A stretch of 64,000 bases of DNA, taken from the NCBI GenBank assembly GCA_041690295.1, contig JAWLHR010000004.1, positions 114,031-178,030 of the forward strand. The letters are read 5' to 3'. A program made the translations under genes and the position numbers. Of the stretch, positions 18,464-25,109 are shown piece by piece. This stretch comes from Bdellovibrionales bacterium (GTDB lineage Bacteria > Bdellovibrionota > Bdellovibrionia > Bdellovibrionales > UBA1609). The notes beneath the pieces were generated by a model. It did not search any database. It saw only the letters and a list, made by a program, of their open reading frames with translations, and had not been told where the DNA came from. Each line of letters starts with the position of its first letter. The stretch's first letter is position 1.

Positions 18464-19432
18464 AGAACTGCCCCACTAGCCTGCAGAAAATCCTGGCGAG
18501 AATTTTGCCTTAAACCACAGGGCATGCGACCAAGCTGCCCCTATTGCCATTCATCCTCAGAGATGTCCGATCACCGGATGCGTATTCAAAAAGCCGGATT
18601 CTTCCGCCGAATCTCCGATGGAAAAAGAGTGCGAAGATTTTATTGTGTAAGCTGCAGTAGATACTTTTCTTATGCCACCTTTCACCCCTGCTTTAGGCAA
18701 AAAAAGCGTCACCTCAATCATCGTATCAACAAACTATTAGCTTCAAGCGTATCTCAGCGCCGAATCGCAAAATTACTCCATATCTCCCGAACCACAGTTG
18801 AACGAAAGTTTCTTTTTCTGGGCCAAAAAGCAGTCCATGAACTTGAACATCAAAACAATTCCAGTCCCCTGGCCACTGTTGTTGAATTTGATGAACTTGA
18901 AACCTTCGAGCACACAAAGTGTAAACCGCTTTCCGTTCCACTAGCCGTTGAATCAAAAACCAGAAGAATTTTAGCCTTCCAAGTGGCCCAGATGCCTGCC
19001 AAAGGAAAGCTCGCCCGCATTTCTCGAAAGAAATATGGCCCAAGACCAGACTTCAGGCCGAAAGCATTGAGTGAACTTTGTGAGAGTTTAAAGCCACTCA
19101 CCACACCTGATGTGCAATTCAAATCCGATCAAAATCCAATGTATCCGGAAATTCTAAGGCGTCACTTTCCTTTAAATTCGCATGAGCGCTTTAAAGGGCA
19201 AAGGGGTTCGATTGTCGGACAGGGGGAGTTAAAGAAGATCCGTTTTGATCCACTTTTTAGTTTGAATCACACGTGTGCGATGCTTCGAGCCAATATCAAT
19301 AGGCTAGTGCGGAAGACTTGGTGCACAACGAAAATTCCTAATAGATTGCGTCTTCATCTCGCCATCTATGCGGTTTATCACAACAATATGATTCGAGCAG
19401 GACCATTAGCTGCAGGCTAGTGGGGCAGTTCT
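18464..19432 (+). mobile_element. IS1-like insertion sequence with perfect 23-bp terminal inverted repeats
   Basis: AGAACTGCCCCACTAGCCTGCAG (18464-18486) and its reverse complement (19410-19432) bracket a transposase ORF. Confidence 0.85.
18524..19420 (+). CDS. IS1-family-like transposase (Zn finger-HTH-catalytic domain)
   Basis: CPYC…CVSC, HTH (SQRRIAKLLHISRTTV), EFDE, KSDQNPMY, LNHTCAMLRANINRLVRK resembling InsB IERHNLNLRQHLARLGRK. Confidence 0.8.
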   Translation: MRPSCPYCHSSSEMSDHRMRIQKAGFFRRISDGKRVRRFYCVSCSRYFSYATFHPCFRQKKRHLNHRINKLLASSVSQRRIAKLLHISRTTVERKFLFLGQKAVHELEHQNNSSPLATVVEFDELETFEHTKCKPLSVPLAVESKTRRILAFQVAQMPAKGKLARISRKKYGPRPDFRPKALSELCESLKPLTTPDVQFKSDQNPMYPEILRRHFPLNSHERFKGQRGSIVGQGELKKIRFDPLFSLNHTCAMLRANINRLVRKTWCTTKIPNRLRLHLAIYAVYHNNMIRAGPLAAG

Positions 19433-20628
19433 TAATCGACTCTAGGAAACGTCATGGTCACAATGGTTCCGTGATCGACTTTGCTTTGAATGGAGAAGGT
19501 TCCCCCCATATTTTCAACATTTGCACGGGCATTGAAGACTCCGATTCCTGAACCGCTATCGCCGGCCTGCTTACCATAACTGATGGGCTCTTTGCCGAGT
19601 CGGCGTAGAATTTCTTCGGGAATGCCTTTTCCTGTGTCGCTAATAATCACGGCAATGTCCCGTAAGGAAGATCGTAGCGCTACCGTAATTTCGCCGGCCC
19701 CATTTAACGCTTCGACGGAATTGTTGATCAAATTGGAAAGTGATTGAGCATACATTTTCCTGTCTAACAGGCAAATGGCCTCTTTCGTATCGCCCTGAAC
19801 ACTCGATGTTATCTTGATTTTGGAATCCGCGGGTAATGAAGCTCGCTTTTCTAAAACCAGCTCCTGAAGAAAATCCGCGACTTTTACCGGGGTTAGAAGG
19901 TTTTTTTGCTTAAGAGCCTGGCCGGAAAACGGTTTGCTTTGGGAAGGCATCTTATATTTGGCCAAGAGGTCGTTGGCGATTTCATTAATTCGCTGAGCCG
20001 CGTTTTTCACGATGGATCGTTTTTCCTCGGGAAGGTCCTTAAGCGAGGCAATGACCATGTTCAGCGCGGACAAGGGAGATCGAATGTCATGAGAAACTTG
20101 GGTCGCCAGAGCGTTGAAAGCCTCTTTTTGCTCAATGCTCAACGAAAGATTATAATCGGCGATGAGTCGAGCCCGCATGCGTTTTGAGAGAAAGTGCATC
20201 ATAAATCCGCTGAGCAGGACGGCGACAATCGAAACGAACACAAAAAACGTGAGATCGAGGCCGAACTCGATGGAACCGATCTTTTCACGAAAGGTCTCTG
20301 GTTGAGCGTCAATGACGAACGCGCTTTGTAAAAGCGGCTTCTTGTACAGAGGAGGGACGGTCAATGACTCTCGTCCGTCCGCGCTGATATAGCGAATGTA
20401 GGTGAAATGGGAGCTTACACTTAAACTGATCTCGATCATGGCGCTTCGATAGTCGCCCTTAATGAGATTCGGATGTGATTGTGTCACGGCGATTGACGCC
20501 AGTTGTTTTTTGAACGAATGAAAAAGCCAAAAGCCGGCGCCAACGCCCGAGAGCGTGAGACAAAGAAAGTAAATCCTGAGATTGAACTCCGCTTTCTTTA
20601 TTGTTCTCTCGATGTTTTGAACGCTCAT
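19432..20628 (-). CDS. Membrane sensor histidine kinase
   Basis: Two TMs flanking a periplasmic domain; H-box SHDIRSPL, N-box NLINNSVEA, DTGKGIP, GSGIG. Confidence 0.92.
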   Translation of the reverse strand: MSVQNIERTIKKAEFNLRIYFLCLTLSGVGAGFWLFHSFKKQLASIAVTQSHPNLIKGDYRSAMIEISLSVSSHFTYIRYISADGRESLTVPPLYKKPLLQSAFVIDAQPETFREKIGSIEFGLDLTFFVFVSIVAVLLSGFMMHFLSKRMRARLIADYNLSLSIEQKEAFNALATQVSHDIRSPLSALNMVIASLKDLPEEKRSIVKNAAQRINEIANDLLAKYKMPSQSKPFSGQALKQKNLLTPVKVADFLQELVLEKRASLPADSKIKITSSVQGDTKEAICLLDRKMYAQSLSNLINNSVEALNGAGEITVALRSSLRDIAVIISDTGKGIPEEILRRLGKEPISYGKQAGDSGSGIGVFNARANVENMGGTFSIQSKVDHGTIVTMTFPRVD

Positions 20629-20630
20629 GG

Positions 20631-21563
20631 CTAGCCTATAAAATGAGGAAGTGAATTGGGTTTGAAGCCGCAGTCGTATTCGATCAAATCACGATGCGAG
20701 ACCTGCACAACGCTCATCCGATCTCTTAGGTCTTCCAGGATGTCGGGAATTTTGAGTTTTCGAACATCGAAGTCGTCCAAACGGAACGGTCTTTTTTCAC
20801 GGAAATCAGGTCCATCCATTTGAGCATCGGGAAAAAGGTGGCGGATTTGTCTGACGTAATCGGGATCCAAACCGAGGAGTCCATGGTGAATCGGTTGCCA
20901 GCTCGATAGCGATCGGAATTCGGTCAAACTTACGGCCTGGACGGGTCTCGATGAAAATAAGAGCGGAAAGTTTTGAACGCACTCGAGGATCGCCTTTGTG
21001 GCAGCGCTCTCCCGGCTTTGGGCCGAGCCAAAACCGAAGATATATTTTTCGACTCCCTTGCCATCTGACCTTTTGGCGACGCAAATGAGAACTTCGCATT
21101 GTTGAAAAAGGCTCTCAGCTCGATAAATAGATACTGACACGTTTCGCTCGCGGCACTTATCCAGGAAAAAGCCAAAGGCCTTATCCGTCGGTTGCAAGTT
21201 TTGTAGCTTATATGGAATGCCATCATTGAAATGGGCGAGGACCGCATCGCGCTCGATGGCCTCGAGCGCCGCGTTGATAATGGCTTGGTCCTCATCGAAA
21301 TGCGCGGCAATTCCACTCAAAGATTTCGATTTCGAACGATGCAAAGTGATTCGCTCAAACATCTCAATTAATGATTTGCCCACGGCGCGCTCGTCAGTTT
21401 CGGCCACGGATCGGCCGACGATCTCAACCCCGGAATCGGCACAAATGGCGCGAACGTCAAAATAACCCGGAAGCCAATCTTTTATATAAGTGAGATTCTC
21501 GAATCGAAGATTGATCTTTCGTTGAGCCAGCGCCCAATTTGTCAGTTCTTCGAAATTTTCCAT
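20631..21563 (-). CDS. YcaO-family protein
   Basis: KSLIEMFER, SGIAAH…AALEAIERDA, GFGS…AATKAILECVQ motifs; C-terminal PHFIG. Confidence 0.8.
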   Translation of the reverse strand: MENFEELTNWALAQRKINLRFENLTYIKDWLPGYFDVRAICADSGVEIVGRSVAETDERAVGKSLIEMFERITLHRSKSKSLSGIAAHFDEDQAIINAALEAIERDAVLAHFNDGIPYKLQNLQPTDKAFGFFLDKCRERNVSVSIYRAESLFQQCEVLICVAKRSDGKGVEKYIFGFGSAQSRESAATKAILECVQNFPLLFSSRPVQAVSLTEFRSLSSWQPIHHGLLGLDPDYVRQIRHLFPDAQMDGPDFREKRPFRLDDFDVRKLKIPDILEDLRDRMSVVQVSHRDLIEYDCGFKPNSLPHFIG

Positions 21564-23086
21564 AAAGGTGAATTGGGGAACAAAATCGAAAAGTCAGCAC
21601 GCCATGGCTTGCGAATAACTGACACATAGGGGGTTCGTAAAATGGGAATGATCACCGGATTTAGCAAGCTTTCGAGGTGGAGCTGTTTAAGAGCTTGAAG
21701 TCGTTGTTCCTCGTCCGTCAAATAAAGGTATTTCTCGATCCACAACTCACGTTCCTGCTCCGTCGTGCCGAGAAAACCTGATTTTAAGCTGTTTATGACA
21801 TTCGGAAGTTGCTCAAGAAACCCGGTATCCATGGAAACGATGTAAAGATGGGGATATTCAGGCGCATCAACATTTGAATCGTACGAGGGAAGCCTCTTTA
21901 GTTGTACGATCTGAATGCCCGGTAGAATTTCCTGAACGACAGGCCGCATGCGATCGAAGTTACGGGCAAAGAAGCCGAGCACAAGCTCTGATCCGTCCTC
22001 GTGTTTTGGGACCGGTGTTTTTCGCTTTTCGAGGACAGCGCTTAACTGCTCGTCCGTAAGACTTCCTTTCCCGCCCTCGGGAAAATACTGGTAGGTCGAT
22101 TGATAACCGGTTCTCCCGCCAAAAACGGATGCGAGTTGATTGGCCACGGCGTTTCCAACCGCCCATCGGCGATCTGATGACAATTGGAGACCTTTTTGCG
22201 TGAAAACCAAGAGCTCAAGCCGCACGGGGAGAGTTTGAAAAAGCGTGGCCTCATTTGAGTCGCGATATTTGTCGATACGCTCACTGATGTCGGTTTGATC
22301 CAACGTACTGAGCAGATCGATTTGACCCGACTCAAATAGTTCAAGACCCGACTTCGAGGATTCGCGCGTGGGAATAAAAACCGGATTCTGTGGAATATCT
22401 TGCGAATAGAGGAAGTGCCGGGGGTTCGCGCGAAGCACAATGGCGCCGTCACTCCGGCGTTCTTTAACAGAGTAGACGCCGGACGTAATGGATAGATTCA
22501 AAGATCTGAGATCGTTGGGATCCACCGAGCGCTTGGGGATTACGGCAAAATCGATGGAGCTGAAGTTTTCGAAGATGGTGAAGGTTTTCTTGCTCGGTTT
22601 TAATCTAAGCTTGCCGTCCACAATGCGGATTCCAGCACATTGATCGTTCACGGACTTGGGTTGGCTATCCGGACAAATCAGTTTCTTCAAATCGCCGTGC
22701 GTGCTTGATCCCAGCACAAGCAATCGCATCAATGAAAAGTAGGCGTCCTCGACTGTGATCTTTTGTCCCTCGGAATCAACTAAATCCTTGTTGATTTCAA
22801 ATTCGATTTCATCATCGACCCAATAGAATTTCGACGCGGCTCCGGGAATGAGTCGGCCGAGATTGTCTCGCAACAAAAGGGGAATATACAGATTCTCTAA
22901 AAAAGCATACTGTCCGGCGACTTGAACTCGAGCGGGATCGAACTCGGAAAGGGAAGTCTCATAAGGGAATCCAACTTTGAACTCGTGAACATTTGAAGGG
23001 ACGGTCATGAGATAACCTCTGAGGCTAAAAAAAATGGCACTCAGAATGAAGAGTGCCATTGTTGCTAGAAAAAACTTAATGTTCAT
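21542..23086 (-). CDS. Family-5 (OppA/DppA-like) solute-binding protein, membrane anchored
   Basis: FDPA, NLYIPLL, LIPGAA, DSEGQKITVEDAYFSL, TSGVY, LRANP; N-terminal hydrophobic anchor. Confidence 0.8.
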   Translation of the reverse strand: MNIKFFLATMALFILSAIFFSLRGYLMTVPSNVHEFKVGFPYETSLSEFDPARVQVAGQYAFLENLYIPLLLRDNLGRLIPGAASKFYWVDDEIEFEINKDLVDSEGQKITVEDAYFSLMRLLVLGSSTHGDLKKLICPDSQPKSVNDQCAGIRIVDGKLRLKPSKKTFTIFENFSSIDFAVIPKRSVDPNDLRSLNLSITSGVYSVKERRSDGAIVLRANPRHFLYSQDIPQNPVFIPTRESSKSGLELFESGQIDLLSTLDQTDISERIDKYRDSNEATLFQTLPVRLELLVFTQKGLQLSSDRRWAVGNAVANQLASVFGGRTGYQSTYQYFPEGGKGSLTDEQLSAVLEKRKTPVPKHEDGSELVLGFFARNFDRMRPVVQEILPGIQIVQLKRLPSYDSNVDAPEYPHLYIVSMDTGFLEQLPNVINSLKSGFLGTTEQERELWIEKYLYLTDEEQRLQALKQLHLESLLNPVIIPILRTPYVSVIRKPWRADFSILFPNSPLWKISKN

Positions 23087-23098
23087 TTGAAAGCGAAC

Positions 23099-23263
23099 TT
23101 ACCTCTCTCCAATTCCAGGAGTATAGGTGCCGATTTCGTCTGGCCTATCCGTCAATAAATCCGCATTCTTGAGCTTCTTGATCACATTTCCATCCTGAGA
23201 ATCAGCGGCATGTGCTGTAGCAAGTCCAAGGATCGTTCCCAGCAAAACTAACAATGCCTTCAT
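23099..23263 (-). CDS. Small secreted peptide (54 aa), candidate RiPP/signal precursor
   Basis: Below the ORF-track cutoff. MKALLVLLGTILGLATAHA-ADSQDGNVIKKLKNADLLTDRPDEIGTYTPGIGER; AGGAGG RBS; stop 12 nt before the SBP start. Confidence 0.85.
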   Translation of the reverse strand: MKALLVLLGTILGLATAHAADSQDGNVIKKLKNADLLTDRPDEIGTYTPGIGER

Positions 23264-23310
23264 TATGTCCCTCCTGCCAAACGATGAACTGGTCAGATAA
23301 TCTATAGTTA

Positions 23311-23327
23311 AGCAAAGCTAAGGCCAA
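23311..23327 (-). promoter_or_regulatory. sigma-54 promoter of the peptide operon
   Basis: Minus strand TTGGCCTTAGCTTTGCT (GG-N10-GC), about 48 nt upstream of the peptide ATG. Confidence 0.6.
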
Positions 23328-23449: not shown

Positions 23450-24934
23450 TTAAAAATCTTTTCTCCCATCCAATTGGAGTTCATACTCGGTCACCTGTGT
23501 CGTCTTGGCTTCGCCTTTCCAGGTGTAGCTGTTGCCGTTCGGGGTGAACCCAAGTTTCCGCCAAAAACCGCTGACGTCGTTTTCTTCGGAAATTCCCAAT
23601 TGGATTTTTTCGATTTTGTAGGTTCGTTTCAAGAAATCGGCGATCAGCTCAAAAGAACGGCGGCCCAATCCTTTACCGAAAACGTCCTCAACCAAGAGCA
23701 GCAGTCCGATGTAGGCCACACCCTCCTGGGGATGATGGACATGAACGTCGGCGGCGCCGATCGGTTTTCCTTCATGTTCGATGATCATGAAGGTTTTCCG
23801 ATAGGCGGCGACTTTTTCTTTCGGCTCCAGGGTCATCTCGGTCTTGACCGTGTGTTCGCTCGGCTCGCAGCCATCGACTTTGCGAAAATACTCCGGAGAT
23901 CTTTTGAAAATCTCAAGAACGGTGGCCGCATCCTCGGGCGTGGCGAAACGCACTCTGAGGTGATCGGGAGGACGAGCGGGCGGGCGACCGTTGTGTGGGC
24001 CCATGGGTACATCCTTGGGCGCGTCCTCCCACAGCCAGCCGCGATCCTTGCCAACCAGGTTACGGAAGGTCTCCGTCGGATAGATGAATTTATCGTCTTT
24101 TGTGCGGGAGTGATCTTCGCCGATGATAAGGTAAAGGAGATCCGAATCGGTTTCATTGATAATGGTGTGCGCGATGTTGGTCCCCGCCGGAAAAACCACG
24201 CCGGTGCCGGCCTTGGCCTCGCACGTGTACCCATTCATCCAGATCGTGGCCGTTCCGGAAAGGATGAAAACAAATTCTTCTTCGATTTTATGAGCATGGG
24301 GGAAGGAGGATCTATGCCCGGGAGCGAGTTTTTCCACGCCAATGCCGAGCGCGCTCAACCCCATTTTCTCATTTAAACGAGCCCAGTGCGTGAAGGACTC
24401 TGTATCGCCGGGATAGGTCCCGGGGCCTTCGAATTCAAGTCGATTGCAATCAATGATAAACGAGGGCCATTCGCGGCCTTTTTCCTCAGGAAGAACCGGG
24501 CCGGGTTTACCCTTGTGCGGTCCCAGCTTTCGTTTCGGAGCGGACTCCCACCATATGGGAGAGGTTTCCCGCTGCTCCGGATTCACGGGAAAAGCGCAAA
24601 GGTTTTCTCTCTTCGTTTGCTCGCCCGCCACAAGAAGACGGACCGGGCGATCCGTGTTGTTGATGAAACAATGTCCAATCCCGGTTCCCGCCGGAAATCC
24701 CACCGCGCACAAGGGATGAAGACTGTGGATGTAGCCGTCGATCCAGACATCCGGATGACCTTCCAGGACGAAGACGAACTCCTCTTCCAAACTTTCGGCA
24801 TGAGGAAGCGAGGACTGGCTGCCCGGTTCCAAGATTTGGTGGTGGAGGCCCACCCGCCGGAATCCTCCAAGCTCGCTGAAGCTGAGCGCCTTGTCCGCCG
24901 GGACAACGTATTTTGTGTAAGGATTTTGATTCAT
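23450..24934 (-). CDS. Tandem cupin-cupin-GNAT acetyltransferase fusion protein
   Basis: Two repeats (PGSQSSLPHAESLEEEFVFVLEG / PGHRSSFPHAHKIEEEFVFILSG), then GNAT motif A (FGKGLG) and FWRKLGF. Confidence 0.8.
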   Translation of the reverse strand: MNQNPYTKYVVPADKALSFSELGGFRRVGLHHQILEPGSQSSLPHAESLEEEFVFVLEGHPDVWIDGYIHSLHPLCAVGFPAGTGIGHCFINNTDRPVRLLVAGEQTKRENLCAFPVNPEQRETSPIWWESAPKRKLGPHKGKPGPVLPEEKGREWPSFIIDCNRLEFEGPGTYPGDTESFTHWARLNEKMGLSALGIGVEKLAPGHRSSFPHAHKIEEEFVFILSGTATIWMNGYTCEAKAGTGVVFPAGTNIAHTIINETDSDLLYLIIGEDHSRTKDDKFIYPTETFRNLVGKDRGWLWEDAPKDVPMGPHNGRPPARPPDHLRVRFATPEDAATVLEIFKRSPEYFRKVDGCEPSEHTVKTEMTLEPKEKVAAYRKTFMIIEHEGKPIGAADVHVHHPQEGVAYIGLLLLVEDVFGKGLGRRSFELIADFLKRTYKIEKIQLGISEENDVSGFWRKLGFTPNGNSYTWKGEAKTTQVTEYELQLDGRKDF

Positions 24935-25109
24935 AGGTGTCGAGTAAAAGCTCAAAATAAGACATTAAACAAGGGGAAAATCCCGGCTCGGCGTCTCAGC
25001 CTGAAACAGGCGCTTCTGGCCATGCCTCAAAACGGGATTGAACTGGAATTTTGTCAAGTTCGTTTGAACAGTCTCCGATTAGTACGATGTCTATTGGGGA
25101 GAATGTATA

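Follow-up and report, generated by a model that had tools for sequence, protein, structure and literature searches.

In staphylococcal agr and Bacillus ComQXPA, a peptide precursor, its modifying enzyme, a kinase, and a regulator are encoded in one operon, and to our knowledge the signalling by modified peptides that kinases sense has been characterised mainly in Gram-positive bacteria. The products of YcaO enzymes have mostly been studied as antibiotics or protein modifications. Among receptors that pair a solute-binding protein (SBP) with a histidine kinase, ChvE-VirA and BctC-BctE sense small molecules from outside, and we know of no peptide precursor and maturase encoded together with these two or with CBP-ChiS. 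In the last of them, control of the kinase is exerted by CBP, an SBP that senses chitin, as described in the cited part of PMC12704726. Bufferins, in turn, are peptides made on ribosomes and modified after translation (RiPPs) that carry a Sec signal, a precedent for modification of a signal-bearing precursor (cited part of PMC11626156). Here, we analysed a window of 64,000 nucleotides (the whole stretch from positions 114,031 to 178,030 of contig JAWLHR010000004.1, assembly GCA_041690295.1) from a Bdellovibrionales bacterium, which holds a cassette encoding a small secreted precursor, a family-5 SBP, a YcaO enzyme, and a sensor kinase. The cassette's probable role is signalling by a modified peptide, with an SBP-kinase receptor that passes the signal to a sigma-54 activator. 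As judged from sequence comparison, the cassette points to a putative, undescribed way in which these Gram-negative bacteria would produce chemically tagged peptides and sense them as signals, the newness lying in the architecture; no description of it was found in the literature searched, most subscription journals and supplements being outside that search.

The four genes are packed on the minus strand in the order precursor (54 aa, 23099-23263), SBP (514 aa, 21542-23086), YcaO (310 aa, 20631-21563), and sensor histidine kinase (398 aa, 19432-20628), with a 12-nt gap, a 22-nt overlap, and a 2-nt gap between them in the list of open reading frames (ORFs). A preliminary description, made from the letters alone, had given these lengths, order, gaps, and overlap, all of which were reproduced, and the hidden Markov model check that it proposed placed every assigned domain above its Pfam cut-off: SBP_bac_5 (PF00496) with 40.1 bits against 32.4, YcaO (PF02624) with 57.1 against 25.7, HisKA with 31.1 against 26.9, and HATPase_c with 68 against 26.4. 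The precursor belonged to no Pfam or NCBIfam family. Ahead of it are the sequence AGGAGG (23270-23275) and, 48 nt from its start, the sigma-54-type GG-N10-GC site already noted in that description (23312-23326, minus strand), which matches 8 of 10 consensus letters and is the putative promoter. In the closest relative, locus L131, such a site matches 9 of 10 letters at the same 48 nt from the precursor start, and rpoN is encoded in the genome of the window. Of 32 loci with a regulator, 14 had a site of this type ahead of it (shuffles: mean 0.7, maximum 4), and of 24 regulator-less ones, four had such a site ahead of the precursor (mean 0.2, maximum 2). The genome (2.88 Mb, 99.9% complete) contains the precursor, the SBP, and the YcaO in single copy, the latter being its sole YcaO, and the cassette is not an assembly artefact, because pieces of it with 0-2 differences recur in contigs of 4/4 sequencing runs from 4 studies. 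A 10-bp terminator-like hairpin followed by a T run (23033-23060), barely inside the SBP gene, could shift the transcript balance towards the precursor and away from the receptor; no same-strand counterpart was seen in L131.

The conservation of this arrangement was analysed with a YcaO profile built from 28 sequences, which at E 1e-6 detected a related YcaO in 186 of the order's 384 genomes, although some of the weaker matches may not belong to a cassette. Sixty fresh loci outside the profile were taken from 150 listed of 359 matches, favouring strong matches and long contigs. SBP and kinase flanked the YcaO in 56 of the 60, with the order SBP-YcaO-kinase in 47 and YcaO-peptide-SBP-kinase-regulator in nine; two others were cut by contig ends and two were different. 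In 81 of 87 loci, the SBP was preceded by a small ORF whose N-terminus was nearly always hydrophobic, eight small-ORF calls having been discarded as evident miscalls. Thus, the gene order and the small ORF, which had been proposed as a unit from this single copy, are conserved across relatives. Full-length loci fell into two kinds: a sigma-54 regulator lay upstream in 30 of the 34 with a kinase of at least 480 aa, and in none of the 21 with a shorter kinase. VirB4 was encoded near 29 of 40 regulator-bearing loci vs. 1 of 26 others, and sigma-54 sites towards VirB genes were modestly enriched (7 of 20, shuffle mean 1.3, maximum 5); VirB4 had no match in the genome of the window.

The SBP has an N-terminal hydrophobic anchor or signal and no cognate permease, as previously claimed: with three queries at E 1e-5, no OppB or OppC homologue was found in any of 107 loci, so that the Opp/Dpp importer pattern of a permease beside the SBP is not seen. 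The kinase has two transmembrane (TM) segments, a periplasmic alpha/beta domain of about 90 aa according to its model, no C-terminal extension, and the invariant residues H180, N299, N303, D331, G333, G335, G359, and G361; in a fold search, its matches were all on the catalytic core and none was informative on the sensor domain. In a set of 39 loci after dereplication, the SBP's pairwise identity correlated with that of the kinase periplasmic domain (rho 0.67) far more than with that of the kinase core (0.20) or of the intervening YcaO (0.41), the periplasmic domain and its own core giving 0.29, all of them values inflated by shared ancestry. The contrast between two parts of one gene favours a functional coupling of SBP and sensor domain, in line with the link to the kinase that had been suggested. 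The genes for the SBP and for the kinase with its periplasmic sensor are adjacent and inherited together, the pattern of an SBP-histidine kinase receptor pair; in CBP-ChiS, ChvE-VirA, and BctC-BctE, a periplasmic SBP controls a membrane kinase. It is conceivable that the SBP instead feeds a genomic Opp/Dpp transporter and is merely co-transcribed with the kinase, as its closest solved relatives (OppA3, AapF, MppA, OppA, PrgZ, with NikA also among the matches) are transport SBPs, and six permease pairs are encoded elsewhere in the genome. However, five of these six have their own SBP alongside, and the cassette SBP belongs to a kinase-linked clade and co-varies with the sensor, which makes this explanation highly improbable.

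The precursor presents a Sec-type signal at about residues 1-19, a single leader helix (L31), and a Cys-free core, G45-T-Y-T48-P-G; its cleavage site, like the SBP membrane anchor, was judged by eye from hydrophobicity. It is a short variant without the folded middle and without Cys. A homologue search with the 54-aa peptide returned only itself, and an ESM Atlas search with a typical family precursor gave no usable match. Among the type-A precursors other than that of the window, a Cys was present within the last 22 aa in 58 of 61 and within the preceding 22 aa in 18 of 61, and in a leave-one-out profile, 49 of the 61 outscored the best of 23,314 background ORFs. Locus L131, whose SBP is 65% identical, encodes a precursor of 74 aa that shares the helix and has GTWTPG in place of GTYTPG (28% pairwise identity over the precursors, E 3e-7). 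In a 51-row alignment, the T48 column held 48 Cys, two Thr (the window and L131), and one Ser, a Cys count that is flattered because the alignment leaves out 12 precursors, mostly long, as well as L066 and L129, which have no Cys; the spacing from the helix Leu to this candidate site was 17 in 32 of 50 rows. Locus L169 combines a 54-aa length and the same KLKNA helix with a Cys, and L154 and L080 have Cys-free tails of other kinds. Precursors of 136-160 aa in which the folded leader is duplicated were observed in L018, L054, L055, L071, and L073.

The YcaO is unusually small and stand-alone, with about 10 residues separating its two ATP-binding helices. Its key residues are E67, E70, R71, S83-G84, E101, E104, R105, and E194; in 68 sequences, E67, G84, and E101 were invariant and E70, R71, E104, R105, and E194 were kept in at least 90%. 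The model (predicted local distance difference test, pLDDT, 92) aligned over residues 1-310 with LynD (4v1u, Z 21.4, 278 residues, root-mean-square deviation 3.5), and with McbD (6gos, Z 19.7) and TruD (4bs9, Z 14.8), reaching the extreme C-terminus of all three, whereas alignments with archaeal thioamide YcaOs (Z about 19.5) ended at residue 301. As the top Z values are close, the class is assigned by C-terminus and substrate and not by rank. The enzyme ends in PHFIG instead of PxP, and so do the closest YcaOs, which are full length; in McbD, the C-terminal residue has been proposed to act as general base, and only thiazoles were left when it was deleted (cited part of PMC6395948). The TIGR03604 score was 45.6 bits against a cut-off of 219.

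With the azoline-forming YcaOs LynD, McbD, and TruD, the enzyme thus shares the fold, the ATP-site glutamates, the aligned C-terminus, a Cys or Thr at the candidate site, and, with Ser here, the position read as McbD T148. It differs from them in its 310 aa, in the lack of an E1 or RiPP recognition element (RRE) partner and of a dehydrogenase, in having one candidate site, and in its association with a Sec-type precursor, a receptor, and a kinase. The E1-like or RRE partner of linear azol(in)e-containing peptides (LAP), thiazole/oxazole-modified microcins (TOMM), and cyanobactins is absent from the cassette, and so is ThiF, the only one of the genome being on another contig. Among the clusters listed for the 107 loci, no E1-like or RRE partner, TfuA, dehydrogenase, or protease neighbour recurred, and a single conserved column stands in place of a multi-site core. 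TfuA had no match in this genome, with a positive control found in M. acetivorans, so the YcaO-TfuA pairing is not seen. Of the proposed modified-peptide signalling, then, the conserved order, the small ORF, the missing permease, and the co-variation of SBP and sensor stand, and the thioamide that had been listed among its possible products is unlikely because of the lack of TfuA.

The same layout of precursor, SBP, and kinase was also found with two other enzymes, a radical SAM/SPASM protein and an alpha-ketoglutarate (aKG)-HExxH enzyme, both in the genome of the window. The radical SAM sibling (L229, C19:21762-25920) comprises the radical SAM/SPASM gene, a 101-aa secreted ORF, an SBP split into two ORFs, and a kinase, and is perhaps damaged in this genome. 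The HExxH sibling (L226, C3:218936-222304) comprises a small ORF whose tail reads EARVD plus four further residues, an aKG-HExxH enzyme (TIGR04267, 50 bits against a cut-off of 40), an SBP of family 5, and a kinase cut by the contig end. Radical SAM enzymes of this type were detected in 23 of the 384 genomes. Of 30 loci, 23 have an SBP next, and a contig end is close in five of the remaining ones; in the extended loci, the kinase follows in 12 of 15 and the regulator precedes in 11 of 15, two of these short or split. The HExxH sibling is widespread in the order, its enzyme being present in 29 of the 384 genomes and adjoining an SBP in 29 of 30 loci; all 12 of the 12 extended loci also have the kinase and the regulator. 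Precursors of this type carry ARMD in 4 of 28 cases and AR-x-D in 11 of 28, and the HExxH sibling resembles in this and in its TIGR04267 enzyme the aKG-HEXXH enzymes PflC and PosC, which cleave at ARMD yielding an amide (cited part of PMC12636437); unlike theirs, its motif has residues after it and its precursor has a signal peptide. A FastTree of 56 SBPs gave a separate clade for each enzyme type (23, 11, and 12 tips, with support 0.39, 1.0, and 1.0), and the three clades plus two further kinase-linked SBPs excluded the eight other SBPs of the genome (support 0.94). The presence of three unrelated peptide-modifying enzymes on one precursor-SBP-kinase frame argues most strongly for the small protein as the putative substrate of the enzyme and for the SBP as the putative reader of its product.

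Two alternatives for the small protein have to be weighed against this. In one, it serves the SBP-kinase pair as an accessory and stays unmodified, and the YcaO has a different substrate or takes part in receptor maturation: the small gene keeps its place beside the SBP in the nine loci where the YcaO moves in front, the Sec signal could remove the protein before any modification, and co-variation of precursor and YcaO is weak. Against it, the tail changes with the enzyme (Cys or Thr with YcaO, AR-x-D in 11 of 28 with HExxH), the spacing from helix to Cys is fixed, and no other small substrate recurs in the loci, so that we regard it as quite unlikely. In the other, the product is a periplasmic effector, such as a bufferin-like metal binder or an envelope-stress protein, whose loaded state, or an outside cue, is sensed by SBP and kinase in a cell-autonomous way. 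Bufferins share with the family a Sec-signal RiPP precursor with a small folded body, a (here predicted) Cys heterocycle, and no dedicated exporter, although their chemistry is that of MNIO and DUF2063 with copper binding and the cited part of that study names no SBP-kinase pair (PMC11626156). The whole mature protein may remain in the periplasm, and there are nickel binders among family-5 SBPs, NikA being among the matches. On the other hand, with Thr for Cys here and other tails in the siblings, no single metal-binding chemistry is kept, and VirB4 accompanies 29 of the 40 regulator-bearing loci. The cassette proteins match families other than MNIO (DUF692) and DUF2063, and the precursor of the window is Cys-free, not Cys-rich. 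This second alternative is unlikely.

In the preferred scheme of modified-peptide signalling, the leader helix would bind the precursor to the minimal YcaO in the cytoplasm, where the residue usually 17 places past the helix Leu would undergo ATP-dependent cyclodehydration, Cys giving thiazoline in most relatives and Thr48 giving methyloxazoline in the precursor of the window. The Sec signal would then export the modified precursor, so no dedicated transporter or protease would be needed. The permease-less SBP would bind the modified tail and act on the periplasmic domain of the kinase, a step with comparative support, and the kinase would phosphorylate a sigma-54 activator. In the five-gene form, mostly beside VirB4 conjugation genes, the activator is the first gene after the sigma-54 site, which would give positive feedback; the copy of the window, without a regulator, would borrow one in trans. 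A single, probably autoregulated operon with precursor, modifying enzyme, kinase, and regulator follows the same logic as agr and ComQXPA, from which the cassette differs by Sec export, a separate SBP co-receptor, a two-TM kinase, a sigma-54 activator, and a Gram-negative host. No Pfam or NCBIfam match of AgrB/ComQ, AgrD/ComX, or AgrC/ComP type was found among the four proteins or 51 precursors, and the likeness is one of analogy, not homology. That the YcaO modifies the peptide, the SBP binds it, and the kinase responds we infer from these comparisons.

Several observations weigh against this scheme. On a family profile built without it, the precursor of the window scored 1.8 bits and ranked 228 among 18,142 small ORFs; its placement in the family is by position, one orthologue, and alignment. 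That orthologue, L131, has a YcaO frame ending at residue 85, 45 nt short of the contig end, and L132 (64% SBP identity) has a toxin-antitoxin pair upstream and no precursor. Precursor divergence followed only weakly that of SBP (rho 0.21) or YcaO (0.20), with all precursor correlations at 0.14-0.21, and a PH-type C-terminus was kept in only 30 of 61 YcaOs. The window cassette is of the short-kinase type, without a response regulator in this copy; no cognate regulator could be picked out, as the cassette regulators form no clade apart from the genome's own, and the 24 regulator-less loci include only four with a sigma-54-type promoter. Besides, kin share features, so the locus counts are not independent. 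In a reciprocal test on 20 SBP-selected loci from 14 genomes, all outside the order, the YcaO was next in 13 (followed by the kinase in 11), which speaks for the scheme; of the others, one met a contig end and six lacked a YcaO after the SBP. The YcaO-less SBPs of cassette type were tandem, lone, accompanied by a precursor, or, in L173, part of a regulator-SBP-kinase set only (L157, L161, L158, L159, L173), and such loci are possibly listen-only modules.

A wider picture, which we hold to be evenly balanced between right and wrong, is that of a modular family of peptide pheromones in Bdellovibrio-like bacteria, with a Sec-exported folded precursor, an interchangeable maturase (minimal YcaO, radical SAM/SPASM, or aKG-HExxH), permease-less SBPs that dock to a kinase and form a clade specific to each enzyme, and a sigma-54 activator driving its own operon and often conjugation genes; all three channels would be in this genome, and the Thr-derived oxazoline of its YcaO channel would be a private variant. 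If true, Gram-negative predators would gain a peptide language with several chemical channels and a possible control point for their conjugative elements. It would also provide three compact enzyme-substrate pairs, easy to test in E. coli, and a partner-free YcaO of 310 aa useful in peptide engineering.

The cassette is inserted between uvrA and an HD gene. Its GC content is 46-49% vs. 54-55% in uvrA, the cupin gene, and hemB, and codon usage of its three long genes lies at the 6th-11th percentile. In seven relatives examined at the uvrA-HD junction, uvrA directly adjoins the HD gene in two close ones and the other five hold different inserts, the cassette being in none; four further genomes have an empty site, judged by coordinates. 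Because of this low GC, the atypical codon usage, and the site without the cassette in relatives, it is an intact, horizontally acquired unit. An IS1-like element belonging to the context (18464-19432, plus strand; weak NF033558 match below cut-off) abuts the stop codons of both kinase and uvrA, ending exactly at these two stops; it has many copies in the genome and terminal inverted repeats, with no clear target duplication. Truncation of the kinase by this insertion sequence (IS) was considered and rejected, as the closest kinases are likewise short (387 and 423 aa).

The family might work as proposed while the copy in the window is silent and decaying, a remnant of a mobile insertion: it sits between uvrA and the HD gene beside an IS, has no regulator and a short, Cys-free precursor, and both relatives closest to it in DNA are broken or incomplete. 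We consider this very unlikely, as the four frames are intact with their catalytic residues, the 21 full-length short-kinase loci likewise have no regulator, L131 has retained the promoter spacing and the GT[YW]TPG core, and the closest YcaOs are full length with PHFIG ends.

Finally, other loci of the genome showed related genes. At C2:28440-35206 (L227), a RiPP radical SAM C-methyltransferase (TIGR03975 above cut-off) is divergent from genes for a methyltransferase, a family-5 SBP, a 378-aa membrane protein, and a kinase. At C4:30576-33041 (L230), a secreted ORF of 86 aa and a hydrolase lie opposite a related kinase, and a further SBP-kinase pair, with the kinase in two ORFs, is located at C14:72669-75572 (L228). 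Next to the cassette in the window, positions 23450-24955 encode a 501-aa double cupin-GNAT fusion of host-like GC, which is also missing at the uvrA-HD junction of the seven relatives. In five relatives (L176-L180), the junction is filled by a gene for a secreted protein of 473-488 aa with several CxxCH-like motifs.

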